DNA of 64,000 nt, taken from NCBI GenBank assembly GCA_965214605.1, contig OZ243961.1:3680001-3744000 (forward strand), written 5' to 3'. The notes under the pieces were generated by a model. The model was not told the origin of the DNA, made no database searches, and worked only from the letters and a program-made list of their open reading frames with translations. Position 1 is the first letter of the stretch; the number at the start of each line of letters is the position of its first letter. Shown piece by piece: positions 2,010 through 19,202 of the stretch. The translations under genes were made by a program, and so were the position numbers. Source of the stretch: an uncultured Candidatus Binatia bacterium (GTDB taxonomy: Bacteria > Desulfobacterota > Binatia > Bin18).

Positions 2010-2218
2010 ATCCGCTTCCTATACGCACGCTTATGATGTCTCAAGCTCTCAGTGCTTGCAGAAGCTTGCCAGAGTTGCGGAGTGTCTGGAAGGTGCCGCG
2101 TAGGGAAGCGTGATGTCTGGTCGCTGTCTTGGTCATGAGGGAACTGAAATACGTTGCTGGGATAGGTCCTCTCTGGTATTCTCTGCCCCTCTTGCTTCGT
2201 CTGTTGAGGTTATTGAAG

Positions 2219-3970
2219 ATGTCGACCACCCCTGCAGGCCACAACCCTAATATCCGCTACGAACCCAACGAACAGCCTTCGCATCTCTTGTCCCTGAGTC
2301 TCGGTTTCCAGTACGCTATGCTGCTCCTCGCGGCTATTGTGTTGACCCCGGCCATTGTGATGCGGGCAGCCAGCCAGAGTGAGAGCTATCTGTCCTGGGC
2401 AGTCTTTGCGGCACTGATCATCAGCGGACTGACGACCGTCCTTCAGGCCGTCCGGCTGGGGCGCATCGGATCCGGCCATGTCCTCATCATGGGGACCTCG
2501 GCCACCTTTATTTCTGTCTCCATCACGGCCTTGGTGGAGGGGGGGCCAGCCCTGCTGGCAAGCCTCATTGTCGTCTCGTCGCTGTTCCAGTTCGCGCTAG
2601 CGGCCTGGCTATCATTGCTGCGGCGGATCATCACGCCGGTTGTCACCGGTACGGTCATTGCCCTCATCTCTGTCACCATCATGCCGGTCATGTTCAACCT
2701 GTTGACCGACGTGCCCGAGGGAACGCCGCCAGCCGCGGCTCCGATAAGCGCCGCGACCACCCTGATTACTGTCGTGGCCCTGGCTCTGCGCGCCTCGGGC
2801 GTCTGGCGGCTGTGGGCGCCGGTCATTGGCATTGCCGTGGGCTGTCTCGTCGCCTCGCCGTTTGGGCTCTACGACTTCGAACGGGTGAGCGCCGCGGCCT
2901 GGATCGGCCTGCCGGCGTTTGCCTGGCCGGGCTTTGATATGAGGTTTGGGGTTGAGTTCTGGGCGCTGTTGCCGGCGTTTGTATTTGTGACCCTGGTTGG
3001 CGCTATTGAGACGGTCGGTGATGCTGTGGCCATTCAGCGGGTCTCGTGGCGTACGCCGCAGGCGATCAGTTTCCGGACGGTCCAGGGCGCGGTCACCGCC
3101 GACGGCGTGGGCAACCTGCTGTCCGGCGTTGCCGCCACCGTGCCGAATACGACCTACTCCTCAAGCGTACCGCTCGTTGAGCTGACCGGAGTTGGCGCTC
3201 GCAGCGTTGGCGCCAGTGTCGGTATTGCCTTCGTCACGCTGGCGTTTCTCCCCAAGGCCACCGCTCTCCTGCTGGCTATTCCAGGCCCGGTCGTCGCCGC
3301 CTATGCTTTTGTCCTGCTGGGGCTGCTGTTCATACAGGGCATGAAGCTCATAGTCCAGGACGATATTGATTATCGCAAGGCCACAGTGGCCGGGGTCGCC
3401 TTCTGGTTGGGAGTAGGATTTCAGAATCAGGCAATTTTCGCTGACTATCTCGGCGAGGCGTGGAGCGTACTGCTCGGCAACGGTATGACAATGGGCGGCT
3501 TTGCGGCGATTGTCCTCACGCTGTTCATAGAACTGACCGGCCCGCGCCGCCAGCGTATCGAAATGGAACTGGATGTCGCCGTCCTGCCAAAGGTCGAGGA
3601 TTTTCTGCGTCGGCTAGCCTCGCGCCTGGGCTGGAACGCCGAGGCAACAGAGCGGCTGTGCTCGGCTGGCGAAGAGACCCTGCTCACCCTCCTTCAGCAC
3701 GAAGAGGGCAAGCCGGTGAGGACGGATCAGCGTCTGCTGCTGGTCGCGCGCGGCGACCGGAGCGCCGCGGAATTGGAGTTTGTGGCGGCAGCTGGCGAAG
3801 AAAACCTTGAGGACCGGCTGGTGCTCCTCGGCGAGCGGGCCGCTGGGACGCCAGCCGAGAACGAGCTCTCGCTACGCCTGCTGCGGCATTTCGCCTCGTC
3901 GGTCCGCCATCAGCAGTACCACGACACGGACATTATAACGGTCCGGGTCGTGGCTGCTGGGGCGAGATAG
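2219..3970 (+). CDS. NCS2 (xanthine/uracil) family permease with C-terminal GHKL/RsbW-like domain
   Basis: Many TM segments; motifs ISGLTTVLQ, ETVGD and GAVTADGVGNLLSG..PNTTYS. A soluble tail of about 140 aa follows. ATG 2219 preferred over TTG 2129. Confidence 0.88.
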   Translation: MSTTPAGHNPNIRYEPNEQPSHLLSLSLGFQYAMLLLAAIVLTPAIVMRAASQSESYLSWAVFAALIISGLTTVLQAVRLGRIGSGHVLIMGTSATFISVSITALVEGGPALLASLIVVSSLFQFALAAWLSLLRRIITPVVTGTVIALISVTIMPVMFNLLTDVPEGTPPAAAPISAATTLITVVALALRASGVWRLWAPVIGIAVGCLVASPFGLYDFERVSAAAWIGLPAFAWPGFDMRFGVEFWALLPAFVFVTLVGAIETVGDAVAIQRVSWRTPQAISFRTVQGAVTADGVGNLLSGVAATVPNTTYSSSVPLVELTGVGARSVGASVGIAFVTLAFLPKATALLLAIPGPVVAAYAFVLLGLLFIQGMKLIVQDDIDYRKATVAGVAFWLGVGFQNQAIFADYLGEAWSVLLGNGMTMGGFAAIVLTLFIELTGPRRQRIEMELDVAVLPKVEDFLRRLASRLGWNAEATERLCSAGEETLLTLLQHEEGKPVRTDQRLLLVARGDRSAAELEFVAAAGEENLEDRLVLLGERAAGTPAENELSLRLLRHFASSVRHQQYHDTDIITVRVVAAGAR

Positions 3971-4159
3971 GTCAACCGACCGGAGAATCTGTCTTCCGTT
4001 TTTTCGACACGTCTTCTGCTCAGTGTTCTGAAACCCTATATTTTTCAGACGCCTATCTTCGCCACTTCGTCAGCAGCCCCGGGGGACGCCCTGTCTTCTC
4101 CAGCCTTGATGTGCTAAGCACAGAGTTAGACACTTACATCGCGCAGGAGGGGCATTCTC

Positions 4160-4912
4160 ATGTCAGGCCACTCTAAATGGAGCACGATCAAACACAAAAA
4201 GGCGGTCAAGGATGCGCGCCGGGGTAAGCTCTTTAACAAACTCATTAAGGACTTAAGCATTGCGGCTCGCATCGGCGGCAGTGACGCCTCCGCCAACCCG
4301 CGCTTGCGCACGGCCCTGGCCGCGGCTAGGGCTGCCAGTATGCCGAACGACACAATTGAGCGGGCGATCAAAAAAGGCGCCGGCGAACTTGAAGGCGTGA
4401 GCTATGAGGAGGTTGTCTATGAGGGCCACGGCCCGGGTGGAGTAGCAATCATGCTGCAGGTCCTGACCGATAACAAGAACCGGACGGTTGCCGAGATTCG
4501 TCATTCTCTCACCAAGTATGGCGGCAGCCTAGGGACCTCAAATTCGGTCGCCTGGATGTTTGATAAAAAAGGCATTATTGCAGTTGAAGCTGAGCAGGTT
4601 GACGAAGACCAGCTGATGGAAATCGTGCTGGAGGCCGGAGCTGAAGACGTGAGCGGCGGCGAGGGCAGCTTTGAGGTAGTGACGAGCCCTGAGGATTTTA
4701 GTGCCGTGCACGCCGCCCTTGAGCAGGCCGGCTTGGCCATGCAGTCGGCTGAGGTAACGCTCGTCCCTCAGAGCACGGTCAGCCTCTCCGGCAAAGAGGC
4801 CGAACAGGTGTATAAACTGCTCGATGTGTTGCAGGAACACGACGATATCCAGAGTGTAGCCGCCAACTGCGAATTCTCTGAAGAGGATTTTGAGCGCTTG
4901 AGCGCAGCCTAA
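4160..4912 (+). CDS. yebC: YebC/PmpR family protein
   Basis: MSGHSKWSTIKHKK start, YEGHGPGGVA and TDNKNRT motifs; canonical position upstream of ruvC. Confidence 0.97.
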   Translation: MSGHSKWSTIKHKKAVKDARRGKLFNKLIKDLSIAARIGGSDASANPRLRTALAAARAASMPNDTIERAIKKGAGELEGVSYEEVVYEGHGPGGVAIMLQVLTDNKNRTVAEIRHSLTKYGGSLGTSNSVAWMFDKKGIIAVEAEQVDEDQLMEIVLEAGAEDVSGGEGSFEVVTSPEDFSAVHAALEQAGLAMQSAEVTLVPQSTVSLSGKEAEQVYKLLDVLQEHDDIQSVAANCEFSEEDFERLSAA

Positions 4913-5009
4913 CAGGCCGGTGCCAACAGATGGGTAGGAGGGAAAAGCTTTTCAGCGTCAGGGTTGATGATTACTAACATGCCGATGAGTTGGGGCAGGA
5001 GGAGGACAG

Positions 5010-5642
5010 GTGCGACGCACGGAAGAAATAGAGCGGGTGCTTGGAGTAGACCCTGGAACGTTGCGGACCGGTTGGGGCATTGTTGACCGCCATCGACAAC
5101 TCACTTTTTGTGCCGGAGGCGTTGTCTCAACCGCTGGCTTCTCATCTCTACCAGAACGGCTGCGGGTCGTGTATGCAGGAATCGTCGAGGTAATTGAGCA
5201 GTGGACTCCCCACACTCTGAGTTTGGAAAAAGCGTTTGTGGCCCATAATGTGCAAAGCGCCTTTCGGCTTGGAGAAGCCAGGGGCGTCATCCTGCTCGCT
5301 GCGGCTCAGGCCGGGCTGCAAATCTCCGAGTATAACCCGACCGAAATTAAAACGGCCGTAGTCGGCTATGGCCGTGCGGATAAGACGCAGGTACAGAAAG
5401 CCGTGTTTTCTCTCTTAGGCAGTGAGACATCGGCCTTGCCAACTAGCCAGGACGCGACAGATGCCCTAGCCGCGGCGGTGTGTCACTGTCATACCTCGCC
5501 GCTGGCGGATCAGATTCAGACCCAGCTGGCCGCGGCGACGGGCCGTCGGGGTAAACGACGTCTGCGCTCGTGGCGTCAAGTTTCTGCCGATAGTCTCGAT
5601 CCTAAGCTGTTGGTCAGGGAGTGGGGAAGAGGCCGGAACTGA
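5010..5642 (+). CDS. ruvC: Holliday junction resolvase RuvC
   Basis: LGVDPG, LGEARGV, GYGRADKTQV and DATDALA motifs. Confidence 0.96.
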   Translation: MRRTEEIERVLGVDPGTLRTGWGIVDRHRQLTFCAGGVVSTAGFSSLPERLRVVYAGIVEVIEQWTPHTLSLEKAFVAHNVQSAFRLGEARGVILLAAAQAGLQISEYNPTEIKTAVVGYGRADKTQVQKAVFSLLGSETSALPTSQDATDALAAAVCHCHTSPLADQIQTQLAAATGRRGKRRLRSWRQVSADSLDPKLLVREWGRGRN

Positions 5643-5664
5643 GCAGCGGGGATCGGGGCGGACA

Positions 5665-6255
5665 ATGATTGCGCATCTGAGCGGAGTACTCGAAGACAAA
5701 GCCCCGGATCAACTGATTGTCGATGTCGGTGGGGTGGGGTACCTAGTGTTCGTTTCGCTCCAAACTTTCTATCGTCTGCCTGAGTCGGGGCAGCGGATCC
5801 GTCTACATATCCATACCCATGTGCGTGAAGACGCCTTGCAGCTCTTTGGCTTCCTCGACGAGCAGGAAAAGGCCGACTTCGTGTTACTCAAAGGGGTCAG
5901 CGGAATTGGCCCCCGGCTGGCGGTCAACATCTTGTCCGGTATCCCGGTTGAGGAGCTAGAAGACGCCCTGCGGGCTGGGGATGTGACCCGGCTGCTGGCT
6001 ATCCCCGGGGTTGGGCGGAAAATGGCTGAGCGTCTGGTGGTTGAGCTGCGTGAAAAGGTCGGGACCTCTCCCGGAAGCGACGCCGTGGCTATCCCGGACG
6101 CCGAGCCGGCGGTTTCTGCGGACGCGGTCTCGGCTCTTATCAATCTGGGCTATCGTCAGGCCCAGGCCGAAAAAGCGGTCCAGCACGCACTCCGCGATGG
6201 GCGGTCCACACTGACCGGTATTATTCAGGAATCACTACGGAGTCTGAGCGGGTGA
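5665..6255 (+). CDS. ruvA: Holliday junction DNA-binding protein RuvA
   Basis: [18 protein letters not shown], and HhH motifs VSGIGPRLA and [11 protein letters not shown]. Confidence 0.97.
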
Positions 6256-7334
6256 GTAAGCCGAAAGAATCCTCCAGAGCCTCTGTCCTTGATCTGAACG
6301 CGCCGCTCGACGCTGTCGAGGATACAGCCACCGGCGAGAGTGGCGGCGAAGCGCGGCTAGAGGGCTCGCTGCGCCCCCGCAGCCTGGACGACTATATCGG
6401 TCAGGAGAGTACCAAACAGAATCTGCATATCGCTATCCAAGCCGCCAAACAGCGAGACGATGTGCTTGACCACCTACTGTTCTACGGCCCTCCAGGGCTG
6501 GGCAAGACCTCGCTGGCCCATATTATCGCCCGGGAAATGGGGGTGGATATTCGGGCCACGACCGGGCCGGTCATTGAGCGGCCCGGTGACCTAGCGGCCA
6601 TCTTGACCAACCTGGAAGACGGCGATGTGTTGTTTATTGATGAAATTCACCGTCTCAACCGAGTGGTGGAAGAATTTTTGTATCCAGCCATGGAAGATTT
6701 TCAGCTGGACCTAGTGGTCGGCCAGGGCCCCTCGGCCCGCACCGTCAAGCTCTCGCTCAAACACTTCACCCTGGTGGGTGCGACCACCCGCTCGGGCCTG
6801 CTGACCTCGCCTCTGCGCGACCGCTTTGGCTCGACCTTTCGCCTGGACTTTTACCGGGCGGCCGAACTCGAACAGATCGTTCGCCGCTCGGCTTCCATTC
6901 TAAATATGACGATTGACTCCGACGGCGTGACTGAGATTGCCCGCCGCTCGCGCGGCACGCCGCGCATCGCCAATCGTTTGCTGCGGCGGGTGCGCGACTT
7001 CGCCCAGGTCAAGGCCGACTCGGTGGTCAGCCGGGAGGTGGCCTGGGATGCGCTGCAGCTGCTAGAAGTGGACGAGGTCGGCTTTGACAAAATGGACCGA
7101 GCCGTCCTATTGACGATTATTGATAAATTCCAGGGTGGCCCGGTCGGAATCGAAACCATCGCCGCAGCCATTGGCGAAGAGAAAAACACCATCGAAGACG
7201 TGTATGAGCCGTATCTGATCCAGGAGGGCTATCTACAGCGTACTTCCCGCGGGCGGCTAGCAACTCTGAAAGCCTACACCCATTTTGGCCGAACCAGCAG
7301 TGCGGACGGCTCGGGTCGGGGTCATCTGTTCTAA
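6252..7334 (+). CDS. ruvB: Holliday junction branch migration helicase RuvB
   Basis: [12 protein letters not shown], Walker A GPPGLGKT, Walker [25 protein letters not shown]. Confidence 0.98.
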
Positions 7335-7364
7335 ATTTCTCGAACGTCAAGGAGTTGAGACGCT

Positions 7365-9677
7365 ATGGACACAGGCCCGCCGTCCGCCGCTCCGTCCCAG
7401 AAATCGCAGCATGCCAAACGCCGGCGAGTCCGGGAAGGCGGGCTGATTGTACTCGCCGGCCTCGCCGTTTTCCTGTTCGTCGTCTCTCAGGGATCGGTGC
7501 CCCAGCTCGTCAACCACAGCTTGGTCAGTAATATCGTCTTTGTTCTACTGATCAACCTCAATATCATTCTGCTCGTCCTCGTCGTTTTTCTGCTCGGCCG
7601 CCACGTGATCAAGCTCTTTTATGAGCGTCAGCAGAAGATACCGGGCGCGCATTTACGCTTTCGGCTGGTCCTGGCCTTTGTGGCGATTTCTCTGCTGCCT
7701 GCCTGCCTGCTGTTTTTGATCGGGATTGGTTTTGTTAATCAGTCTATTAACAACTGGTTTTCCGAAAAGATCGAAACCCCGCTGAGCCAAGCGGTCGACG
7801 TCGTCAATGCCTTCCACGATCACTTGACTGACGATGCGTTATTTCATGCTCAGAGGCTGGCCACCGAGGTGGTGTCCGAAGGGTTGCACGATGGGCAAAG
7901 CCAGGCGCTGGGGGACTTGGTCGAGCGCACCTCTCGGCGCTTTGAGCTGGGACGAATTTTGATCTTTGGTCCTACCCGGCACCTCTTGGCGAGCGCCTCG
8001 GAACCGGACCACGCCATTGGCGAGAACAACAAAAGGGACACCAAGCTGCTCGACCAGGTGTTCCAGAATACGGCCATTCCTCAGACCTACTCGGTGGGCC
8101 AGACCGAGGTCGTGCGCGGAGGGGCACCTATCCTGGACCGAGATGAGGTGATTGGAGCGGTCGTTGTCGAGTACTCGATGCCGCCTCACGTCGCCTGGCA
8201 GGAAATCCAGGTGGCGAAGGCCTCCCGGGAGTATCAGCAGCTTAGAATTCTCAAGCAGCCGATCAAGAACAATTATTTGATCACCATGTTTCTGGTGACA
8301 CTAGTGGCAGTCTTTTCCGCGATTTGGCTGGGTTTCTTTTTGTCCAAAAAGATCACCATCCCGCTCCAACAGCTGGCCGCGGCAACTCGTGAGGTAGCCC
8401 AGGGCCACTGGAGCCATCGGCTTGAGGGCGAGGGCGAGGATGAGGTCGGAACCCTGGTGGCCGCCTTTAACCGGATGACAACCGACTTACAGCAGAGCCA
8501 TCAAGAGCTGGAAGCCCGGCGGCGCTATATGGAAATCTTGCTCGCCAATATGAACGCCGGGGTCGTATCTTTAGATCGGACCGGTATGGTCTCGACGCTG
8601 AATCGGGCCGCCGAGCAGCTGCTGGGGGTGGCCGCCGAGGGGGTAGTTGAGCGGGACTACCACAACGTGTTTGGGTCGGCCGAGTTTGCTGAACTGCGGC
8701 GGATGATCGGGAACTTGCTGACCGAGTCACTCAGCGAGCCAAGCGCTGGAGACGAGGGGAGGCCCGAGAGCCAGGGGCAACTGCGCCTGCTGCGTGACGG
8801 CCAAGCCCTGACCCTATTAGTAACGACCGCGCCTCTGACTGATGAGCGCGGAGAAGTGTTAGGCGGGGTGTGCTTTTTTGAGGATGTGACCCAGATCATC
8901 CGGGCCGAACGTATGGAAGCCTGGCGTGAAGTGGCGTGCCGGATTGCTCACGAAATCAAAAATCCGCTGACCCCAATTCAGCTTGCCGCCCAGCGCTTGC
9001 ACCGGCGGTTTGCGCCGCAGTTGTCCGATTCCCAAGGCGTGTTCGAAGAATGTGTCCAGAGCATCGCCCATGAGGTTGATACGATTAAACGGCTGGTCAA
9101 CGAGTTTTCGACCTTTGCCCGTTTACCGACCGCTGAGTACCAGCCGGAGGATCTGAACACGCTGATCCAAGAGGTGATTATCATCTTTTCCGAGGCGCAT
9201 CGAGATCTGGATTTCATCTTGTCCTACGACCCTGATCTGCCGCTGCTTGATCTCGACCGAGAGGGTATCAAACGGGCTGTACGCAATCTGCTGGATAATG
9301 CCGTGGCTGCCTGCCAGACCTCGGTCAACGGCAGGGCCAATGGCCCGTTGGGTCAGATTGGAGTGGCGACCCGCTTTTTCCGTTCGGTCGGCATCGTTCG
9401 ACTTGAGGTGACCGATACTGGCTGCGGTATTCCGGCCCAGATCAAGGATCGCTTGTTCGAGCCCTATTTTTCGACCAAAAAAGAAGGAACGGGCCTAGGG
9501 TTGGCGATTGTGGCTACGGTGGTGGCTGATCATCAGGCTTTTCTGCGCGTGCGGGATAATACCCCTCACGGAAGTCGCTTTATTATTGAGCTGCCGGTCC
9601 GACGGCGGGGGCAGCTGAGCACGGATCTGGTCAGGGCGACGCCACCGCAGCCAACCGCAAACGGTCGATATAGCTAG
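7365..9677 (+). CDS. ntrY: NtrY-like membrane sensor histidine kinase (HAMP-PAS-HisKA-HATPase)
   Basis: Three N-terminal TMs, periplasmic domain, HAMP (DEVGTLVAAFNRMT), PAS, NtrY-type H-box AWREVACRIAHEIKNPLTPIQL, and N/G boxes NLLDNA, DTGCGI, GTGLGLAIV. Confidence 0.9.
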   Translation: MDTGPPSAAPSQKSQHAKRRRVREGGLIVLAGLAVFLFVVSQGSVPQLVNHSLVSNIVFVLLINLNIILLVLVVFLLGRHVIKLFYERQQKIPGAHLRFRLVLAFVAISLLPACLLFLIGIGFVNQSINNWFSEKIETPLSQAVDVVNAFHDHLTDDALFHAQRLATEVVSEGLHDGQSQALGDLVERTSRRFELGRILIFGPTRHLLASASEPDHAIGENNKRDTKLLDQVFQNTAIPQTYSVGQTEVVRGGAPILDRDEVIGAVVVEYSMPPHVAWQEIQVAKASREYQQLRILKQPIKNNYLITMFLVTLVAVFSAIWLGFFLSKKITIPLQQLAAATREVAQGHWSHRLEGEGEDEVGTLVAAFNRMTTDLQQSHQELEARRRYMEILLANMNAGVVSLDRTGMVSTLNRAAEQLLGVAAEGVVERDYHNVFGSAEFAELRRMIGNLLTESLSEPSAGDEGRPESQGQLRLLRDGQALTLLVTTAPLTDERGEVLGGVCFFEDVTQIIRAERMEAWREVACRIAHEIKNPLTPIQLAAQRLHRRFAPQLSDSQGVFEECVQSIAHEVDTIKRLVNEFSTFARLPTAEYQPEDLNTLIQEVIIIFSEAHRDLDFILSYDPDLPLLDLDREGIKRAVRNLLDNAVAACQTSVNGRANGPLGQIGVATRFFRSVGIVRLEVTDTGCGIPAQIKDRLFEPYFSTKKEGTGLGLAIVATVVADHQAFLRVRDNTPHGSRFIIELPVRRRGQLSTDLVRATPPQPTANGRYS

Positions 9678-9687
9678 TGAGGACGGT

Positions 9688-11007
9688 ATGAACGATACCA
9701 TTCTAGTGGTTGATGATGAGGAAAAGATTCGGACGACCTTACGCGGGATTCTGAGCGATGAGGGATTCCAGGTCTTGGACACCGGAGACAGTGCCCAAGT
9801 CCTCGATCTAATCCGCACCCGCCAACCCCGGCTGGTCATTCTTGATATTTGGATGCCGCAGCTCGACGGCATTAGCCTGCTCGAACAACTCAAAGCCCAG
9901 CAACCGAAACTACCGGTCATTGTCATTTCCGGCCACGGCACAATTGAGACAGCGGTCCGGGCGACCAAGCTGGGAGCGACTGATTTTATTGAGAAACCGT
10001 TTTCGCTCGAAGCCCTCCTCCGCTCGGTGTATCGGGCGATTGGACGCGAGGCGGCTGACCACACCGCCCAAGGAGGACATCGCGCTTCGCCGCCCAACCG
10101 TCAGGCTGTAGTGGGGCCGCGCGAGTGTGTCCAGGCTCAGACAATTGGACGCAGCGTTGTGCTGCGTGGTCAGGGATTGCACTCTGGCGTGCGCACTGGG
10201 GTGATCCTGCAACCGCTGCCACCCGGCAGTGGAATCGTGTTCGGATCCCTATCGACCGGTGTGGTAATTCCGGCCTCAGTCGACTATATCAGCTCGACCG
10301 GCTATGCGACGAGTTTGTACCGGGACGGCGCTATGGCCCGTACGATTGAACATCTCATGGCGGCCCTGCACGGCTACGGTATCACTAATCTGATGATCAA
10401 GATGCAGGATGAAATCCCGATTCTGGACGGATCGGCGCGCGAGTTTTGTCAGGTACTTGACGAAGCCGGGATTGTCGAGCAGGACGAGACAGTTGAGCTC
10501 ATTACGGTCGATCGGCCGTATCAGGTGGGCGACGGAGGGGGTGACAAGGAGCTGCGCATTGAGCCGGCCGATCATTTTTCGGTCCGCTATATTCTGGACT
10601 ATCCCCCACCGGTCGGTCGTCAGGAACACTGCTATGTGCATCGGGGAGCCGAGAGCTTTGGCGCCGAAATTGCCCCGGCCCGAACCTTTGGCTTTTTGAA
10701 AGAGGTCCAAGCGCTGGAGCAGATGGGCCTGGCCAACGGTGGACGGCTTGACAACTGTATTTTGATAGGCGATCAGGGCGTGATTAATCCACCTCTGCGT
10801 TTTGATGACGAACTCGCCCGCCACAAAGTCTTGGATCTGGTCGGTGATCTGTACCTGTTAGGGCGACCGTTACGGGGGAAAGTGACGGCTAATCGGACCG
10901 GTCACAGCGATAATGTTGCCCTAGTCCGGGCCTTACGGCTGGGATTGCAAGCCAAAAAGCTCGGGGGAGAGCATTTGTCTATGAGAGGTGTGGAAAAACA
11001 GCTATGA
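9688..11007 (+). CDS. lpxC: Receiver domain fused to UDP-3-O-acyl-GlcNAc deacetylase LpxC
   Basis: Residues ~1-120 are an NtrX-like REC (VVDDE, LDIWMP, ISGHG, FIEKPF). From ~150 the LpxC motifs appear: GQGLHSG, TIEHLMAAL, EIPILDGSA, IAPARTFGF, HKVLDLVGDL, TGHSDN. One continuous ORF. Confidence 0.92.
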   Translation: MNDTILVVDDEEKIRTTLRGILSDEGFQVLDTGDSAQVLDLIRTRQPRLVILDIWMPQLDGISLLEQLKAQQPKLPVIVISGHGTIETAVRATKLGATDFIEKPFSLEALLRSVYRAIGREAADHTAQGGHRASPPNRQAVVGPRECVQAQTIGRSVVLRGQGLHSGVRTGVILQPLPPGSGIVFGSLSTGVVIPASVDYISSTGYATSLYRDGAMARTIEHLMAALHGYGITNLMIKMQDEIPILDGSAREFCQVLDEAGIVEQDETVELITVDRPYQVGDGGGDKELRIEPADHFSVRYILDYPPPVGRQEHCYVHRGAESFGAEIAPARTFGFLKEVQALEQMGLANGGRLDNCILIGDQGVINPPLRFDDELARHKVLDLVGDLYLLGRPLRGKVTANRTGHSDNVALVRALRLGLQAKKLGGEHLSMRGVEKQL

Positions 11008-11014
11008 TGAAAGA

Positions 11015-12001
11015 ATGATTAAACGCTGGCTCTGCCTGAGTCTCCTTTTTGCTGTTGGACTCGTGGCTGACGGCCTTGGCCAGAGCCCTCCGTCCTCCGT
11101 CCAACTCGCCCAACTCAAACAGGTTCGTGACCGTCTGCTCTCGGTTATCCCTAATCCCCCCCAGTTTGAACTCCTGGTGTTCGACAACCCATCCATCAAC
11201 GCTGGGGCCACCTCTGGTCGGCTCCTTTTCTCGACCGGCATGCTCAACTTTGTGCGCTCAGACGACGAACTCGCCGTGATTGTCGGCCACGAGATCGCCC
11301 ATCTCACCCAGGGACATGTGGTCCAGGGGAGGCTCAGGTCCATCCTGCTCAGCTTGGCCAGCCAGCTAGTCGATAACGTCTATCCGGGCGTCGGGGTGCT
11401 GACCGGTCAGATCGGTCGGCTGTTTCTTAACCACTATGACCAGCGCCAGGAGCACGAGGCCGATGCGGTCGGCCTGCGCTATGCGTTTGACGCCGGCTAT
11501 GATCCCTGGGCCGGGGCTGAGGTCATGCGTCGTCTGGCCCGTGAGGTGCCGAAAACGGCCACCGCCAACTTTTTTTCGTCCCATCCGTCCTCTCCAGAAC
11601 GGGCCAACACACTCCAACGGCTCGCCGCCCGGCTGACCGCCCAAGCTTCCGCTTCCCCGCCCACACAAGCTCCCGGCCCGGCCGCTGATTTGGCGGCCTT
11701 GTCACGGTCGCCAAATCAGCAGGTAAGGTCTCGGTTCGGACGTGACAAGGAGTCTTGCCTTCGGGCGCGATCCTACTTCCAGCGCGCCTCAGACACCCAC
11801 GCCTTAGACCAAAAAGTGCAACTCTACCACCGGGGCTTACGCCTGTGTCCGCAGAGCCCACGGGCACGTTTTGAGTTGGCCGAGGTGTATGCCCGTCTGG
11901 GACAGCTCAAGCCCGCGGCCGATGAGCTCCGGGCGGTGTTGAGTTACGATCCGTTTTATCCTGGCGTCCGTCAGCGCTTGCGCAGCCTGCAGGAGCGCTG
12001 A
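11015..12001 (+). CDS. M48 family metalloprotease with C-terminal TPR (BepA/YfgC-like)
   Basis: Signal peptide, INAGA, ELAVIVGHEIAH (HExxH), QEHEAD, SSHPSSPER and a TPR-like tail. Confidence 0.9.
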   Translation: MIKRWLCLSLLFAVGLVADGLGQSPPSSVQLAQLKQVRDRLLSVIPNPPQFELLVFDNPSINAGATSGRLLFSTGMLNFVRSDDELAVIVGHEIAHLTQGHVVQGRLRSILLSLASQLVDNVYPGVGVLTGQIGRLFLNHYDQRQEHEADAVGLRYAFDAGYDPWAGAEVMRRLAREVPKTATANFFSSHPSSPERANTLQRLAARLTAQASASPPTQAPGPAADLAALSRSPNQQVRSRFGRDKESCLRARSYFQRASDTHALDQKVQLYHRGLRLCPQSPRARFELAEVYARLGQLKPAADELRAVLSYDPFYPGVRQRLRSLQER

Positions 12002-12016
12002 CGGTATCCCTTGAAC

Positions 12017-12546
12017 TCAGCGGTGTTTTCCGACGGTGACAATCTCGCTGACGATCTCCGAGAGAGATGCGGTCGGTGTGGCCGGCTGCTGCACCAGACG
12101 GAATAGACTTGACTCGCGCTGAAAAAATCTCTCGGTCTGGCAGGATCCGGGCAATCCGAGGTAGGTGTGTAATCGAAGGGGTGACAAACCTCGTGTAGGA
12201 GGGGGCGAAGGTGCGAAAGGCCACTCCCTAGCCTCGTTTGGCGGTCTGCATCCAGATCTGGAATCCTTACGGCTGCCATTGTTGTACTGAGTGTATAGAC
12301 CGTGTAGCTTACTGCGCTGATTCCGAGGAATGGGATCCCCCGGACTTGTACCCGTACGCTGCGAACGGTGAGTTGACAGCAGATCTGATTCACAATACGC
12401 CGCTCCTCCCCACCTAGGACACTGACCAGAGTCTCCACCACGTCTAACAAGTGCAGGGGAGGTGTCGAGCTTGATCGGGGTGATGACACGATACTGCGAT
12501 CGTACATTCGTTTCTGACATGGATTCTTGACCAGCCAGTCCCGCAT
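12017..12546 (-). pseudogene. Frameshifted remnant of a small HExxH (SprT-like/zincin) conserved protein
   Basis: Fragments in three frames join into QKRMYDRS / VRVQVRG / KLHGLYTQY / QIWMQTAKRG*GVAFRTF / LLHEVCH / ERFFQRESSLF. This matches my recollection of a conserved LHGLY..WMRTAK..VAFRTFLRTLLHE..HLDY..RESSL family. One internal TAG and several frameshifts; SD-like sequence before ATG 12546. Confidence 0.65.
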
Positions 12547-12685
12547 CCTCACCTCTCTGACAGACGACTATTGTGGCCCGGACAAACGAAGACTACAAGG
12601 CGGCCGCAAAGAGCTTTCTCTTTTCTTCTAGACTGAGATAGCGTATGGTGAAGGCTCATTTCGCAACTCACACACAGGAAGCGTC

Positions 12686-13168
12686 ATGCGATCTCTCGTC
12701 AGATGGTGGGGCAGTGCAGTTCTGATTATGTTGGTAGTCGGCACGCCTGTACGAGTCGCCGCGTGTTTTGCCGATTTCTTCCAGCAGCAGAAAGTCGGTC
12801 AGGAAATGACGCTGACCGGGGAGTTTTACCGTTTTCCCCAGACGCGTCGATTTTTTCGGCGCGATTATAAGACCCGCCGAGTTGACTATTTTACCTTTTT
12901 TAGCGTAGCAGTCGTGCCGACCACGATTATCGGCAACGGGGCCATGTCGCAGGAGGCGAGGCCAATCGATTCCTTGCTGTTGCTGTTCCCCGCTGAGGAA
13001 CTCGTCCGAGACCTGCCACAGACGGGTGATAAGATTTGGTTCACCGGAACACTACTCGGCTATCAATACGGCTCAAGCGGCATTACCGAAGCCTTCGGTA
13101 TCGGCGGTATGCCCTATATTTTGCTCAAGCGCTTCTCTGACCAAGCCCCGGACTCTCTCAACCGCTAA
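12686..13168 (+). CDS. Hypothetical exported protein
   Basis: AGGA before ATG, signal peptide ending VAA, beta-rich body. Confidence 0.7.
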   Translation: MRSLVRWWGSAVLIMLVVGTPVRVAACFADFFQQQKVGQEMTLTGEFYRFPQTRRFFRRDYKTRRVDYFTFFSVAVVPTTIIGNGAMSQEARPIDSLLLLFPAEELVRDLPQTGDKIWFTGTLLGYQYGSSGITEAFGIGGMPYILLKRFSDQAPDSLNR

Positions 13169-13212
13169 TCGGCCTTGCCAAGACCCAAAAAAATCTGCAC
13201 GGTCATAGGATT

Positions 13213-14985
13213 ATGACTTGGGATGCGTGGTTTACTCTGGCGGTCGTGGTCGTCGGTATTGGGGCCTTGATTCGGGACTTGTTGGCCCCGGATCTGATCT
13301 TTGTGGGCATGCTGGCCGTCTTGCTAGTGAGCGGTATTCTCTCGCCGCAGGAGGCGTTTGCCGGTTTTTCAAACCCGGAAATTTTGGCCATCGGCGCCTT
13401 ATTTGTGGTTGCCGGGGCGCTCCGCCATACTGGCGCCCTGAGCTTTGTAGCGACTCGCCTGTTTGGCCAGATTACCAGCGACCGACGTGCCCTGTTGCGC
13501 ATGATGCTGCCCACCGCCGGGATCTCCGCCTTTCTAAACAACACCCCGATTGTGGCAATGTTCACGCCGGTTGTGTTTGACTGGGCGCGCCGCCACCACG
13601 TGTCGCCGTCGCGCTTTCTCATTCCGCTGTCCTACGCGACGATTTTGGGCGGGGCGTGTACCCTGATCGGGACGTCTACCAACATGGTGGTCAACGGCTT
13701 GATGGTCAGCGCCGGCCAGCCGGGCATGTCCTTCTTTGAGCTAAGCGCGGTCGGGGTTCCATGTGCTCTGGTCGGCGTGGGTTTTCTGGTCATTGCTGGG
13801 CGTGTTCTGCTGCCCGATCGCAAGGAGCTGCTGGAGAGTCTCGGCGAAACGAGTCGTGAGTATCTGGTTGAACTCGAGGTGACGGCTGAGTGCCCTTTGG
13901 TCGGCCGACCGATCGAAGAGGCTGGGCTGCGCCACCTGCCCGGCCTGTTTCTGGTCCGTATCGAACGGCTTGAGGAAACCGTCTCCCCGGTCGGGCCGCA
14001 AGAACGTATCCGGGTCGCTGACCGGTTAGTCTTCACCGGAGTCGTGTCGACGATTGTCGATCTGCAAAAGATCCGGGGACTGGTACCAGCCGGGGATCAC
14101 CGCGAAGGAGCCGAACGCGTCGGCGAGGGCAATAATCTGAGCGAAGCGGTTGTTTCTGAGGAGTCGCCGCTCAACGGGGTGACAATTCGGGATGCCAATT
14201 TCCGCACCCGCTACGGTGCGGCCGTGGTTGCCGTGCATCGTGGGGGACGCCGGCTGAGTGGAAAAATCGGCGATATTTTGCTCCGCGCGGGAGACACCTT
14301 GTTACTCGAAGCCTCGGCCGGTTTTGCCCGTACCTACCGGAATTCGGCTGACTTTTATCTGGTGTCTGAGGTCGATAATAGCGCGCCGCCACGTTACGAT
14401 AAAGCTATTCCGGCCCTGCTCGCCCTGCTCGCCCTCATCTCTACTGTGGCCATGGGAGTGCTGCCGATGATAACGGCGGCGCTGCTGGCCGCGTTTATCG
14501 TTATCGCGTGCGGCTGTCTGTCCGTGGGGGAGACCCGCAGTGCTGTCGATGTCTCGGTGTTGATTCTGATTGCCGCCGCATTCGGGGTCGGCAAAGCGCT
14601 GGATAAGACAGGGGTGGCTGGATTTTTGGCTTTATTCTTGATCGACCTCGGCGATGGGCTGGGGCTAGTGGGAGTGCTGGCGTTGGTCTATCTGGTCACC
14701 CTACTCTTCACCGAATGTATCTCCCACGCCCCGGCAGCGGTCCTGATGTTCCCCATTGCGCTTGAGACCGCCCAGCAGTTTGGAGTCGATATGCGGCCGT
14801 TTGCGATTACGATTGCGATCGCCGCCTCGGCCGCGTTTGCCTCGCCGCTCAGCTATCAGACCCATCTCATGGTCTATGGACCAGGGGGCTATCGCTTTGC
14901 CGATTTTCTGAAAATCGGTATTCCCCTTGACCTGTTAATCTTCACCGTAGCCATGATTTGTATTCCGTGGGCCTGGCCATTCTGA
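13213..14985 (+). CDS. SLC13/CitMHS family permease with two TrkA-C domains
   Basis: AFAGFSN, SAFLNNTPIVA, TLIGTSTN, two central TrkA-C repeats, PLSYQTHLMVYGPGGYRFADF. Confidence 0.93.
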   Translation: MTWDAWFTLAVVVVGIGALIRDLLAPDLIFVGMLAVLLVSGILSPQEAFAGFSNPEILAIGALFVVAGALRHTGALSFVATRLFGQITSDRRALLRMMLPTAGISAFLNNTPIVAMFTPVVFDWARRHHVSPSRFLIPLSYATILGGACTLIGTSTNMVVNGLMVSAGQPGMSFFELSAVGVPCALVGVGFLVIAGRVLLPDRKELLESLGETSREYLVELEVTAECPLVGRPIEEAGLRHLPGLFLVRIERLEETVSPVGPQERIRVADRLVFTGVVSTIVDLQKIRGLVPAGDHREGAERVGEGNNLSEAVVSEESPLNGVTIRDANFRTRYGAAVVAVHRGGRRLSGKIGDILLRAGDTLLLEASAGFARTYRNSADFYLVSEVDNSAPPRYDKAIPALLALLALISTVAMGVLPMITAALLAAFIVIACGCLSVGETRSAVDVSVLILIAAAFGVGKALDKTGVAGFLALFLIDLGDGLGLVGVLALVYLVTLLFTECISHAPAAVLMFPIALETAQQFGVDMRPFAITIAIAASAAFASPLSYQTHLMVYGPGGYRFADFLKIGIPLDLLIFTVAMICIPWAWPF

Positions 14986-15017
14986 GCCGAGACCTGCCTT
15001 CGGCACCCCACGGTCCG

Positions 15018-16145
15018 CTAACTGAAGCGCGGCATGACTTTTTCGGCAAAGATCTCAAAACTGCGCAACACCATATCATGGGGTAAAAGGCCGTCGCCAA
15101 TTAAGAAGAACATTTCGTCGGTACCAATTTTTGCCGCCAGCTCGATTTTCCGTGACACACTGTCCGCGTCACCGATCAGCGGCTCTGCCACACCTAGCCC
15201 GAACGGAATGCCCCATTTTTCCCAGAACCAGCGGGTATCTTTGAGGGCGCGCTCGGTGTGCTCTGCGTTGTCCGTCACCACCAGCTGTCCTCCTAGGGCG
15301 AGTTCGGTGCCGGGAGTGACGGTGCGACCCGCCTTATCAGCCTCCTCACGATAGATGCTCTGCAGTCGAGCGCACAGTTCTTCGTGCAAGAGAATAATAA
15401 TCGGTTTGCCGCCCTCGCGGGCCCAGTAGCGAATCGACTCGGTATTATGGGTAAAACCGGCGTACAGTGGGGGATAGGGCTTTTGGTAGGGACGCGGAGC
15501 AATACCGACCTGTTCGATGATCATATCTTGTGTTACCCCGGCGCCGTACTGGCTATAGGCCTCCATAGGATGGGGATTCCTGGCCCCCTGAGGCGGGAAC
15601 TGCCAAAACTCTCCCCGGTGGCAGAAGGTGTCGTGCGTCCAGGCTTTCTTAATAATCTCCACGCCTTCTTCAAACACTCGTCGGTTGAGCAGATCAGAGG
15701 CCTGTTTTTTATTCCAGTGTCCGACCGCCTCGACGCCGGGCCGGGTGGCATAGTTCTGGACCCAGCGCGCCTGATAACCGCGTACGAAGGCGACGTTGAG
15801 TCGACCTTGGAGCATATGATCCATCATTGCCACATCCTCGGCCACCCGTAGTGGATTATGGGTGTTGAGCACATAGCCCAGCACGTCTACGCGTAAACGC
15901 TCGGAATGCTGGCCGATGAACATACTCAGCAGACCGGGGCTGCCGGTCGCTTCCATCCCCTCGATCTGTAAGTGATGCTCGGGATGGCCAAAGCCGGCAA
16001 AGCCGGCCTGGTCACAGAACTGGACGTAGTCCTTGAGATTGGTCAGCATGCGCTGATACAGAACCGGATTTTTTCCGGCCATACCGACCTCCAGCTCTTT
16101 ACGGGTTCCAACTGTACCATACGCAATAGCGTGAAATTTCATCAT
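15018..16145 (-). CDS. LLM-class flavin-dependent oxidoreductase (luciferase-like)
   Basis: PEHHLQIEG, NPLRVAEDVAMMDHMLQGRL, PRPYQKPYPP, FAEKVMPRF. GAGG SD before ATG 16145. Confidence 0.92.
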   Translation of the reverse strand: MMKFHAIAYGTVGTRKELEVGMAGKNPVLYQRMLTNLKDYVQFCDQAGFAGFGHPEHHLQIEGMEATGSPGLLSMFIGQHSERLRVDVLGYVLNTHNPLRVAEDVAMMDHMLQGRLNVAFVRGYQARWVQNYATRPGVEAVGHWNKKQASDLLNRRVFEEGVEIIKKAWTHDTFCHRGEFWQFPPQGARNPHPMEAYSQYGAGVTQDMIIEQVGIAPRPYQKPYPPLYAGFTHNTESIRYWAREGGKPIIILLHEELCARLQSIYREEADKAGRTVTPGTELALGGQLVVTDNAEHTERALKDTRWFWEKWGIPFGLGVAEPLIGDADSVSRKIELAAKIGTDEMFFLIGDGLLPHDMVLRSFEIFAEKVMPRFS

Positions 16146-16309
16146 GTTCCTCAAGAATAGTCGCTAGCGCCTCAGCTAAATTCTCGCGTGCAGTGTTCTT
16201 GGTTTTGTCCGGCCTGTTTGCTCCGGGAAGTGCAGGGCAGTATACCATTCCTCGCCCTACTCGATAATCGTACCGATCTCATTTTTTCTCGTAGCAATCT
16301 CCTAAACCA

Positions 16310-16739
16310 GAGCGCTGAGACGGCCTTTCCCTCATCTGCACGGAGAATCGATCCCGGTCTTCCCCTGGAAGCCGTGCCACTGCTCTCGAAGCGCATACGG
16401 TTATATGTGTCTCTGACACCGACCACGTCAGAGATATGGATAATCGTCTCGAACGCTTCTCGCTGGACGAAGAAGCAGCGGGCCTCTCCGTCGCGCCGCC
16501 GTCGGTCTGCTCCGGCAAGTCGGGTTCCCCGGACCTGTCAGTTGAGCGGGCTGTGACTTGCCGGGCTTGTGCCCGCATTGGTCGCTCTCAAGGAACGTCT
16601 GGTGCCAAAGCTCGGGCCCTCACTGGCGGCATCAGCTTCTCGACACTCCTCTCCCGCGGAGCCTCATCCGCCGAGAACCAGCGAAGCTCCAGGTAATCGT
16701 AGAGGGGGGAGAAGCGGGGGAGTCGGGATGGAGCGCCGT
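16310..16739 (-). pseudogene. N-terminal remnant of a Type III restriction enzyme Res subunit
   Basis: ACG (putative dead start) ALHPDSP, then in shifted frames LRWFSADEAPRERSVEKLMPP, FFVQREAFETIIHISDVVGVRDTYNRMRFESSG and DRDRFSVQM. These resemble the recalled Res N-terminus MALHP..RWFPADEALRE..EKLMPP..YFAQREAVETIIYL..MRFDSSG..RRFVIKM. The helicase and nuclease body is missing. Confidence 0.75.
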
Positions 16740-16740
16740 G

Positions 16741-17277
16741 TCAGCGGCTCAACAACCGCTTGTTCGCCGTTAGTATAGATATTCCTTGTCCGTCGAAATC
16801 GCCGTCATCGGTGATCAGCTTTAAGCCCCGGCTGTTACACAGCTCCCGAATAACTTGGTCATTAAAGTCAGCGCGCCCCTCTGTGTACTCGCTCATCAAG
16901 CCAGCTACGTTCAACATTTCAAAGCAGTTTTCAATCCGCGCACAATGGCGCAGCACTCGCTTGATGTTGTCGGCTATTTCTTGAGCGATCGGCTTGAAGC
17001 CTGGGCTGTTGCGGAACTCCTTGAACTTCTTCGTGGAGGCAACGAGCCGCCACTGCTGTCGGGTATAAGCGTTAATAAATTCCGAGACGACGAGGACATC
17101 GATGTAGATATGGCTGCCCGCTTCCAGGATGCGACGAAACGCTGAGGAATACGTGGACATTTTGGGGTTGGTGGGGCGCTGTGGGCCGTAGATAAACAAC
17201 CAGATATTGGCGTCCAGAAATAATTCATCGTCAGACGTGAACTTGTAACCTCCGACATGCGCAACGTCATGCGTCAT
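16741..17277 (-). CDS. PIN-domain protein (putative RNase)
   Basis: FLDANIW, VVSEFIN, DFNDQVI and LITDDGDF supply the acidic PIN residues. ATG 17277 overlaps the upstream gene by 11 nt. Confidence 0.88.
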   Translation of the reverse strand: MTHDVAHVGGYKFTSDDELFLDANIWLFIYGPQRPTNPKMSTYSSAFRRILEAGSHIYIDVLVVSEFINAYTRQQWRLVASTKKFKEFRNSPGFKPIAQEIADNIKRVLRHCARIENCFEMLNVAGLMSEYTEGRADFNDQVIRELCNSRGLKLITDDGDFDGQGISILTANKRLLSR

Positions 17278-17632
17278 CGCCGTTGTCCTCAAGCACTTCC
17301 CGCACCGCGTTATCGAATCTCTCCGGGTCTTGAAAGTATCGCTTGGCTGTCTCGACAACCCGCCTTAACAGGACGACATCATCAGATTCCATGTCTTCTA
17401 CCTTCAGCAAGGTGCGAATCTTATTTTCGTCGAATTCACTGTATAATTGACCGATCGCCGTGTTGAGAAATGCCGACGTCAGTGTGGACACGTTCCGGAA
17501 CGAGAGCGAGACGCGCCGGTTCTGTCTCAGTACAGCGACGATGCGATCGTATACTTTTTGTCCGTCGCTCGACGCGACGCATAAGGGGCTGCCGACGATC
17601 CCGAATATGGATATCGCAATGTCTGTGCTCAT
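17267..17632 (-). CDS. STAS-like domain protein (DUF4325-like)
   Basis: 121 aa from ATG 17632. DGQKVY..VSLSFRNVSTLTSAFLNTAIGQLY, with Thr/Ser at the STAS phospho-acceptor loop. Confidence 0.85.
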   Translation of the reverse strand: MSTDIAISIFGIVGSPLCVASSDGQKVYDRIVAVLRQNRRVSLSFRNVSTLTSAFLNTAIGQLYSEFDENKIRTLLKVEDMESDDVVLLRRVVETAKRYFQDPERFDNAVREVLEDNGDDA

Positions 17633-17639
17633 AGGGGCC

Positions 17640-18512
17640 TTAGAAGATTTCGTGGTCTTCGGGTTCTGAAGCGAGTCTGTAGGAGCTATAGTCTGCGGTA
17701 TTGATTTCCATGCTGACGACCGTCCCTGGAAACGGTTGGTCCAGTGGAGACGTATCAATCCCCTTGTCTTTTCGCTGCCAATACCCAGCATCAGACACTA
17801 TCTGAATATGGCCCCCATTCAAATCAATAAACTCACTCAGCAGTGTCAACCCCAGTCCGCCGGGAATTGTACCGCGCTTGGTCGTATTGTGCTCCCGAGT
17901 GGCCCAGATGATAGCGTCCATCGGAGACAGATTTTTCTGAAGATGGTCGCAGACATTTTTTCGTATGCCGACCCCTAAATCGGCCACGGTAAAATTAAGT
18001 CTGTTCCTGGTAGGAAAAAACTGTCCACAACTAAAAATTCCCAACTCAGTACGGGAGTGCAGCACGGCGTTGCTGAATATCTCGAAAACACTCTCGCGAA
18101 GTTTTTTCAACAGTCCCGGCGACATTGCTGGCATTTCGGGATGGCTGATAAACTCCCGCTCAATATAGTCGGAGAAATATCGGTCGTCTTCAACATCAAA
18201 TCGTTGGTAAGGAATAGTCGTTCCCCAGCGGTCGGGGATGTTCGTCCGACCGTAGTGGCTCAGAAAACCGTTTTTCGACAGGATGCTTTCAACAGCTGGG
18301 GGGAGATTGACCAAATTGACGGTGTTCAGATTGTCTCCCAAGCAATACAGAATTGCGCCGAACGCCGCGCACCTGTCGGCGTCAAGCCAACTCGTTTCCC
18401 TCATGTCAATTTCGACGTCCTCAAAGACACACTGTTTAGTTTGAGAGTGGAAGAGTGCCAAAGCTGCGAAACCTTTGAGGCCGTGGTAAATCGTCGGGAG
18501 AGGAACTCTCAT
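17640..18512 (-). CDS. GHKL ATPase/kinase (HATPase_c) with N-terminal STAS-like region
   Basis: N box EIFSNAVLHS, G1 VADLGVGI, G2 GGLGL, GTVV. N-terminus IDMRETSWLDA..VNLPPAVESILSKNGF looks STAS-like. No TM or HisKA H-box. Confidence 0.85.
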   Translation of the reverse strand: MRVPLPTIYHGLKGFAALALFHSQTKQCVFEDVEIDMRETSWLDADRCAAFGAILYCLGDNLNTVNLVNLPPAVESILSKNGFLSHYGRTNIPDRWGTTIPYQRFDVEDDRYFSDYIEREFISHPEMPAMSPGLLKKLRESVFEIFSNAVLHSRTELGIFSCGQFFPTRNRLNFTVADLGVGIRKNVCDHLQKNLSPMDAIIWATREHNTTKRGTIPGGLGLTLLSEFIDLNGGHIQIVSDAGYWQRKDKGIDTSPLDQPFPGTVVSMEINTADYSSYRLASEPEDHEIF

Positions 18513-18592
18513 ACCGTTACCTCCACATGCGTCATGGCGTCGTTACTGAAAAGGTTCACAACTTTGACGGCAATCTTATACCGTCCCGGCGG
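18509..18592 (-). pseudogene. C-terminal remnant of a Type III R-M Mod methyltransferase
   Basis: PPGRYKIAVKVVNLFSNDAMTHVEVTV* resembles the recalled Mod C-terminus GRRKIAVKVVDIFGNDT..EV. Its TGA overlaps the GHKL ATG (ATGA). An in-frame stop lies about 20 codons upstream. Confidence 0.72.
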
Positions 18593-18865
18593 GCGGTCCA
18601 CATTTCCGGCTGAAGGAGCGTCCTCATCCAAGAAGTTGAATGTCCCAACCCAGAATTATAAAAGGCAATCTGATCGTTAGCTCGAACAACGCTCCTACAC
18701 TCCGTTTGTGTTATTTTTCCCGTGGTCGTTTCTCTACGCCATCGTAACAAACGGTTGGACTCGGACTCATACTGGTTCCTCACGAGCTCTTGAAAGGCCG
18801 CTTGACGATTAATTCTCATGACACAGAGACAAAGCCTCGGTCCCTGCTATAGGTGAGTATTCCCC

Positions 18866-19168: not shown

Positions 19169-19202
19169 CGCTTTCTTTGATCCTCTTCTCGGCTCGGGTG
19201 GC

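Follow-up and report, generated by a model that had tools for sequence, protein, structure and literature searches.

LpxC commits the cell to lipid A synthesis. In CheB, the active site stays blocked by the receiver until the latter is phosphorylated. The present analysis concerns a 64,000-nucleotide stretch of DNA from an uncultured Candidatus Binatia bacterium (contig OZ243961.1, positions 3,680,001 to 3,744,000), called the window below. It encodes a protein in which an NtrX-like receiver is joined to a complete predicted LpxC, and the gene lies directly downstream of a gene for an NtrY-like sensor kinase. Response regulators with enzyme outputs are already known, and this is an apparently uncharacterised one with an LpxC output. 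A working LpxC that carries a working NtrX-type receiver would be the enzymatic output of a two-component system and subject to phospho-control, a reading to which a probability of about 0.55 can be given.

The fusion protein resembles CheB in that an N-terminal receiver, a flexible linker and a C-terminal hydrolase are combined in one chain. The catalytic fold, the substrate and the pathway, however, are unrelated to those of CheB, and occlusion of the active site is here an analogy and not a result. With the NtrY/NtrX systems of alphaproteobacteria, the locus shares the domain order of the kinase (membrane region, HAMP, PAS, HisKA, HATPase_c), and the best family and the solved relatives of the fused receiver are NtrX. 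The difference lies in the output: NtrX binds DNA via AAA+ and helix-turn-helix (HTH) domains, whereas the output here is LpxC. No protein of the window's genome scored above the NtrX cut-off of 600 bits, the best reaching 378 bits. NtrYX is reported to lower lpxC transcripts in R. sphaeroides and C. crescentus, and to affect the amount of lipopolysaccharide (PMC7240162, PMC12444477). A third paper describes D. vulgaris DVU2934 as a DNA-binding regulator with lpxC as its single mapped target, and places lpxC of S. fumaroxidans directly upstream of the orthologous regulator operon (PMC3333781). The latter order matches the lpxC, kinase, regulator order of three unfused genomes described below. 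DVU2934/DVU2931 is a two-component system dedicated to lpxC, but its control is transcriptional. Together with the three unfused genomes, these reports make up an independent functional link between NtrYX-kind systems and lpxC.

Two other kinds of comparison can be made. Control by FtsH/LapB/YejM differs in being regulated proteolysis carried out by separate proteins, with no signalling domain within LpxC; the LapB zinc ribbon (PF18073) gave no match above cut-off in the window's genome, in a search whose control fires in Gram-positive genomes too and which is therefore uninformative. LpxC-FabZ (NF009667) is likewise a natural LpxC fusion, and the window protein matches its model with 209 bits over residues 148-424, which is the LpxC part. 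The partner in LpxC-FabZ, however, is a C-terminal second enzyme and not an N-terminal signalling domain, and the score stays below the cut-off of 465. The initial annotation of this DNA knew of no characterised example of the architecture, and no functional study of a receiver-LpxC fusion was found in the full-text literature, which leaves subscription journals mostly outside; architecture databases surely list the combination. The protein is apparently uncharacterised in the sense that no functional study was found, not that it was never noticed. A 2025 review of lipid A regulation lacks the words "receiver", "response regulator" and "fusion", and it presents LpxC control in non-enterobacterial lineages as largely open (PMC12444477).

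In the window, domains were called by the profile cut-offs of Pfam and NCBIfam. The features of the kinase and fusion genes are as follows.

7365..9677, + strand: NtrY-like sensor histidine kinase, 770 aa (open reading frame (ORF), Pfam).
9679..9683, + strand: Shine-Dalgarno-like GAGGA, 5 nt before the fusion ATG (read from the sequence).
9688..11007, + strand: receiver-LpxC fusion gene, 439 aa plus stop (ORF, Pfam, NCBIfam).
9700..10029, + strand: receiver (REC) domain, residues 5-114, with the D53 codon at 9844-9846 (Pfam Response_reg).
10042..10128, + strand: inter-domain linker, residues ~119-147, ~29 aa (AlphaFold confidence).
10129..10938, + strand: LpxC deacetylase domain, residues 148-417 (Pfam, TIGR00325, Foldseek).

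Both halves of the protein are assigned with wide margins. Response_reg (PF00072) matches residues 5-114 (E 2.6e-31, 108.5 bits against a cut-off of 30.2), and LpxC (PF03331) matches residues 151-416 (E 9.7e-84, 281.5 bits against 27); the lpxC equivalog TIGR00325 reaches 244 bits where 187.25 is required. The top receiver family in NCBIfam is NtrX, with 139 bits confined to residues 4-120. The NtrX equivalog NF051870, which spans receiver, AAA+ and HTH, requires 600 bits against the 139 obtained, and neither an AAA+ nor an HTH domain was found in the protein with Pfam. By these profiles, the receiver of the protein is NtrX-like, and the protein as a whole is no NtrX. The closest solved structures of the receiver are those of Brucella NtrX (4d6x, E 6e-31; 5m7n, E 7e-30), and the LpxC part can be aligned with the P. 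aeruginosa enzyme (E 1e-50), each catalytic motif falling opposite its counterpart.

Every residue named in the initial annotation is present, and its view of a real fusion with intact sites in both domains is borne out. The receiver has D9, D10, D53 (in LDIW), S81, F100 and K103-P104. The LpxC part has E221-H222 (TIEHL), H379/K380/D383/D387 (HKVLDLVGD) and H406 (TGH); these include what we take to be the Zn ligands (His, His, Asp) and the catalytic Glu and His, E78/H79/H238/D242/H265 in E. coli numbering. Among 43 fused homologues from diverse genomes, D9, D10, D53, K103 and P104 are invariant, S/T81 and F100 are kept, and E221, H222, H379, K380, D383, D387 and H406 are invariant, in 43 of 43 cases each. 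The same receiver and LpxC residues are invariant in an alignment of 47 rows (A1). The deacetylase domain is a predicted LpxC, and both domains look functional.

An AlphaFold model based on the 47-row alignment has a mean predicted local distance difference test (pLDDT) score of 87.6 and a predicted template modelling (pTM) score of 0.83, with receiver and LpxC both confident. The pLDDT is mostly >90 in residues 147-425 and falls to <50 at residues 123-141, in the linker, and at residues 428-439, the C-terminal 12. A single-sequence model had been poor (pLDDT 43.6) and was replaced by this one. In Foldseek comparisons with the Aquifex, Pseudomonas and E. coli enzymes, the LpxC domain reaches template modelling (TM) scores by target of 0.82-0.94 with a root-mean-square deviation of 1.6-2.3 Å, which confirms the two-domain LpxC fold for the model; no solved chain covers both domains (TM by query <=0.60). 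A pTM of 0.83 despite the disordered linker suggests, at the level of a model, a defined docking of the two domains. A homodimer prediction (two copies, alignment A1) gave no answer (score 0.00) and is evidence neither way.

The fusion is the only LpxC that the cell has. An LpxC family search of the whole genome, which is 99.99% complete, gave one match, the fusion, and the control for this search fires in the expected Gram-negative genomes; a second lpxC, which the initial annotation had considered, is thus not found there. LpxB is present, so the lipid A pathway exists in this genome, and the sole-LpxC status in a genome with LpxB supports the predicted deacetylase activity indirectly. As judged from its gene content, the cell is dependent on the fusion protein. 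As for coverage of the domain junction, two runs of one study, possibly the source of the window, have contigs that run through 9300-11300 with zero differences, and contigs of a second study match letter for letter, piecewise, one of them covering the linker and the LpxC start (10046-10541).

The architecture is widespread. In a sample of 151 genomes of the window's phylum, the window's genome included, a fused receiver-LpxC was found in 34, made up of 17 full-length matches, 7 two-domain proteins with a longer linker and 10 proteins of a long form described below. A probable further fusion in genome G074 is unconfirmed, its gene being divided between the ends of two contigs. No other LpxC accompanies the fused gene in 33 of the 34 confirmed carriers, the exception being G034. 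When G074 is counted, 34 of 35 are without another LpxC (15/16 and 18/18 in two family-search sets, plus the window genome). In the sample of 81 Bdellovibrionota genomes, 71 have a single full-length match; one more (G187) has two adjacent matches in one open frame, five have contig-edge fragments crossing the domain junction, and two show the LpxC part only (G158, in a 494-aa open frame, and G190, in a 328-aa one). The remaining 2 of the 81 have no match at E <= 1e-30. In the Bdellovibrionota genomes G151 and G152, the fusion is again the sole LpxC. The best 120 database relatives of the window protein all have Response_reg and LpxC, and the best 120 relatives of a Bdellovibrionota member all carry both domains. 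The ESM Atlas holds 17 clusters of at least 50 members with both domains, Binatota and Myxococcota being the commonest labels. The named database matches come from metagenome-assembled genomes, with no cultured species name among them. Across this range, which covers at least two phyla, the predicted phospho-site is retained intact over a great evolutionary distance.

Genome G034 stands by itself in the phylum sample as the only one with both a fused LpxC (L097, C11:39470-40762) and a free one (L128, C33:20150-20965). Its fused copy is the most divergent, with 38-41% identity and an end branch of 1.33 in the LpxC tree, and this divergence may reflect a relaxed or changed function.

The phylogeny of the LpxC domains was studied with 66 sequences, 43 fused (22 short, 7 long-linker, 10 long and 4 from Bdellovibrionota) and 23 free. 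The 43 fused domains form one clade with a branch length of 0.76 and a value of 99 in the Shimodaira-Hasegawa-like approximate likelihood ratio test (SH-aLRT), and all 23 free LpxCs lie outside it. From this single clade, we conclude that the fused LpxC has one origin. With an SH-aLRT of 90, the receiver tree places the fused receivers together with those of the free regulators beside NtrY-like kinases and of alphaproteobacterial NtrX; the five further NtrC-type regulators of the window's genome fall outside this group.

The long form has a receiver, Sigma54_activat and AAA_lid_14 followed by LpxC, in 684-742 aa, and it is the sole LpxC in 10/10 of its genomes. The ten relatives are located as follows.

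L099:3151-5328 (+), L100:3323-5521 (-), L098:3522-5783 (+), L103, L105 and L109-L113: long-form relatives.

Among the LpxC domains nearest to the window's, which include long forms, identity is 50-58%, whereas the ordinary LpxC domains of this phylum reach 34-42%. For one long form, LpxC and AAA+ are present in all of the best 120 relatives and the receiver in 119 of them; one source often labels such proteins "NtrX". The existence of receiver-AAA+-LpxC proteins fits the earlier view that LpxC stands in place of the AAA+/HTH output. Ten long-form proteins were aligned with three free regulators that stand beside NtrY-like kinases, and motifs were read by eye. The long forms mostly keep Walker A, but all ten have lost the Asp-Glu pair of Walker B and are without the GAFTGA loop; the three free regulators keep both the pair and the loop. 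The long forms lack both these marks of a sigma-54 activator module, and Sigma54_activat is still detected in 5/5 scanned. A Fis-type HTH-like segment between the AAA+ lid and LpxC can be seen by eye in 8/10 long forms; a Pfam scan of five of these proteins gave no HTH at E <= 0.001, and a precomputed HTH_8 match (PF02954) exists on one database member (P0195). As read from these motifs, the transcription-activator module of the long form is decayed, with receiver and LpxC intact.

The unfused arrangement occurs at L106 (G037), L107 (G109) and L108 (G149), where lpxC, an NtrY-like kinase gene and a gene for a receiver-AAA+-HTH regulator follow one another on one strand. The receivers of these three regulators are 53-60% identical to the window's receiver. 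Since both GSFTGA/GAFTGA and the Asp-Glu pair of Walker B are retained in these regulators, lpxC of the three genomes may be under sigma-54 control.

The order of events can be read in two ways. The decay of AAA+ suggests a reduction from long to short; the long forms lie inside a subclade, however, which speaks for the opposite order or for independent fusions from an ancestral gene cluster. The receiver tree joins the long forms in one clade (SH-aLRT 84) whose sister is a group of 16 short forms (82). In the LpxC data, the approximately unbiased test does not reject a single long-form clade (p 0.744), and the tree with this clade has a log-likelihood higher by 12.3 units. An earlier interpretation of a quick LpxC tree, in which long forms in at least three places stood for repeated AAA+ loss, was withdrawn. 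In the long-linker forms of L101 and L104, a charged heptad-like stretch follows the receiver (~residues 118-145, by eye) and resembles the receiver-AAA+ coiled-coil linker of free regulators; it may be a remnant of a deleted AAA+ module.

Turning to the kinase, its Pfam domains are HAMP (326-377), PAS (391-508), HisKA (521-587) and HATPase_c (631-746), and its N-terminal region shows, by eye, four hydrophobic segments around a ~170-aa extracytoplasmic stretch. sCache_3_2 stays below cut-off. Between the kinase stop and the fusion ATG lie 10 bases, as the initial annotation had counted when it placed an NtrY-like kinase directly upstream of an NtrX-like receiver, and it is this gap and the synteny that suggest the pairing of receiver and kinase. 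Homologues of the kinase, with 37-77% identity, lie directly upstream of fused lpxC in 13 other loci. An NtrY-like kinase is directly upstream in 9/9 assessable loci of the window's class and in 4/9 assessable long-form loci.

What we infer from these sequences is that phosphate is transferred, that the transfer affects the enzyme, and in which direction it does so. The NtrY-like membrane kinase would sense a signal, probably from the envelope, and would phosphorylate Asp53. By analogy with CheB, the unphosphorylated tethered receiver would restrain the hydrolase, and phosphorylation would release or stimulate it; physically, a change in oligomeric state could serve as an alternative. The CheB-like relief of an inhibitory contact between receiver and enzyme is the mode that we favour by this analogy. 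That phosphorylation would switch LpxC on is a guess, made because sigma-54-type regulators activate transcription; however, NtrYX lowers lpxC transcripts in alphaproteobacteria, according to the papers cited above. The phospho-site is kept in 43/43 proteins while AAA+ decayed, which argues that receiver phosphorylation still matters and points to purifying selection acting specifically on the phospho-site.

Several observations weigh against phospho-control of the enzyme by an NtrY-like kinase. The initial annotation had raised the possibility that ntrY always adjoins the fusion, and outside the window's class this fails: a kinase homologue adjoins 0/16 short-form loci there and 0/7 long-linker loci (0/23 together), so that the fusion is an orphan in most lineages. 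G151 gave no NtrY-like kinase at E <= 1e-40. The NtrY assignment is itself borderline, NtrY_N scoring 23.2 bits, exactly its cut-off, over 130/291 profile positions, and the NtrY model is not among the best 25 NCBIfam matches of the kinase. The linker of ~29 aa agrees with the ~30 aa noted initially, and the receiver Lys-Pro and GxGLHSG lie 51-90 residues apart in short forms, against 318-375 for the long forms; because the modelled linker is disordered and variable in length, coupling cannot rely on a rigid connection. An intact receiver would also fit phospho-control of stability, location or partner binding.

The neighbours of orphan short forms are housekeeping genes (purA, NUDIX, mobB, murC, racemase). 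Among five orphan-fusion genomes that were searched as a whole, four hold a homologous kinase elsewhere, two of them full length with 41% identity, and these four kinases have no regulator gene in their ~1.5 kb flanks. Since such kinases lie elsewhere without a flanking regulator, an orphan kinase and an orphan fusion could still be partners. At L092, one of the 16 orphan loci and from a Desulfobacterota-type genome, an unrelated kinase-regulator pair (2111-3516, -) follows the fusion at a distance of ~1.5 kb; it was rejected as an NtrY-like partner, having 26% identity over the kinase catalytic core only. Joined kinase-fusion ORFs of 1290-1354 aa were also rejected, as open-frame artefacts of G+C-rich DNA, because tblastn puts the kinase in another frame.

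Among the alternatives, the one that survives best holds that phosphorylation sets the amount of LpxC and not its catalysis, the receiver being a switchable degron or adaptor module with an RssB-type logic. Enterobacterial LpxC is controlled mainly by proteolysis through FtsH/LapB/YejM (PMC12444477), the intact receiver residues fit this equally well, the C-terminal 12 residues are disordered in the model, and in the window the next gene after the fusion encodes an M48 protease. This protease, however, is probably extracytoplasmic and is encoded next to the fusion in one related locus only; no conserved adaptor or protease gene lies beside the fusion in 16 other loci, and a known degron was not identified. 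Control of the amount is on this balance unlikely, if worth keeping in view.

Alternatively, the receiver could be non-signalling, a structural or dimerisation module or a phosphate sink, with LpxC constitutive. Most fusion genes are without an adjacent kinase, and the AAA+ module of the long forms, decayed in 10/10, shows that modules of the protein can lose function. Yet in these same proteins, in which AAA+ motifs decayed, the phospho-residues are invariant (43/43 over at least two phyla), and orphan NtrY-like kinases are present in 4/5 tested genomes, which makes a silent receiver rather improbable. Very doubtful is a reversed or two-way signal, in which LpxC occupancy would alter receiver phosphorylation and report the flux of lipid A precursors to the kinase or, in the long form, to DNA in the manner of a trigger enzyme. 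The Fis-type HTH-like segments of 8/10 long forms and the HTH_8 match on P0195 would suit it, but known response regulators take their input at the N-terminal receiver and give their output through the C-terminal domain, the short form is without a DNA-binding part, and the Pfam scan of five long forms found no HTH at its threshold. Finally, that an assembly or gene-calling artefact joined two separate genes is scarcely conceivable and already refuted by contigs and comparative data: nothing was found in its favour, although the genome is seemingly metagenome-assembled (9 contigs), the reading frame is continuous and stop-free, contigs of independent runs agree letter for letter, and hundreds of independent assemblies encode the same architecture.

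Under phospho-control of the fusion protein, a receiver in the cell's only LpxC would be a new and very direct way to match LpxC activity to envelope growth, a matching understood mainly in enterobacteria, where it is done by proteolysis, and LpxC would join the small list of enzymes serving as response-regulator outputs. The fusion would be a natural "Rosetta stone" tying NtrYX-type systems to lipid A control, a link so far seen only as transcript changes in a few species. It is possible, and may be put forward tentatively, that receiver-fused LpxC is a major overlooked form of lipid A control, used through NtrY-type phosphotransfer in most sampled Bdellovibrionota, in Binatia and in many Desulfobacterota. 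If true, lpxC control would be an ancient core task of NtrYX-type systems, and the three arrangements (lpxC beside ntrY/ntrX; receiver-dead AAA+-HTH-LpxC; receiver-LpxC) would record how direct control of the enzyme took over from a transcription factor that regulated lpxC; the long form may then be an enzyme plus a DNA-binding regulator. A single purified protein plus a phosphodonor makes a simple test system. The fusion is of high interest: its enzyme has a central place in outer-membrane synthesis, the architecture occurs widely, and testing it is easy.

The genes that flank the kinase and fusion genes in the window are the following.

5010..7334, + strand: ruvC, ruvA and ruvB, directly upstream of the kinase gene (ORFs; RuvB Pfam domains).
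11015..12001, + strand: M48 metalloprotease with a C-terminal TPR and a signal-peptide-like N-terminus (Peptidase_M48; furthest start GTG 10988).

The ORF order on the + strand is ruvC, ruvA, ruvB, kinase, fusion, M48/TPR. As initially noted, the M48 gene begins 7 nt after the fusion stop, with an ATG at 11015 that opens a signal-peptide-like stretch; because of this N-terminus, the protein is probably outside the cytoplasm. Peptidase_M48 matches at E 3.2e-22, together with weak TPR matches. The proposed BepA-type assignment did not hold (61.9 against 570 bits for the BepA equivalog, 40 against 365 bits for LoiP), and by these profiles the protein is a generic M48 domain with TPR. A homologue adjoins the fusion in L002, the closest relative, only, and lies 2.2 kb off in L082. 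Because it is rarely adjacent and falls below the BepA and LoiP cut-offs, the M48 gene is not regarded as part of the predicted system.

The order ruvCAB, kinase, fusion is common to L002, L003, L005, L007, L008, L082 and L089. In the window, the spacing of ruvCAB and the kinase gene is tight, with gaps of 22 and 30 nt and a 4-nt overlap of ruvA and ruvB; DNA repair genes co-transcribed with an envelope system would be odd. A promoter and terminator scan of 4800-13300 gave counts at chance level, and an Rfam scan of window positions 1-20000 gave zero matches. Downstream of the M48 gene, positions 12002-12685 are 684 bases with no listed + strand ORF of at least 80 aa and no Rfam match. They are followed at 12686-13168 by a 160-aa ORF that belongs to no Pfam family and is conserved in L002 (81%) and L082 (41%).

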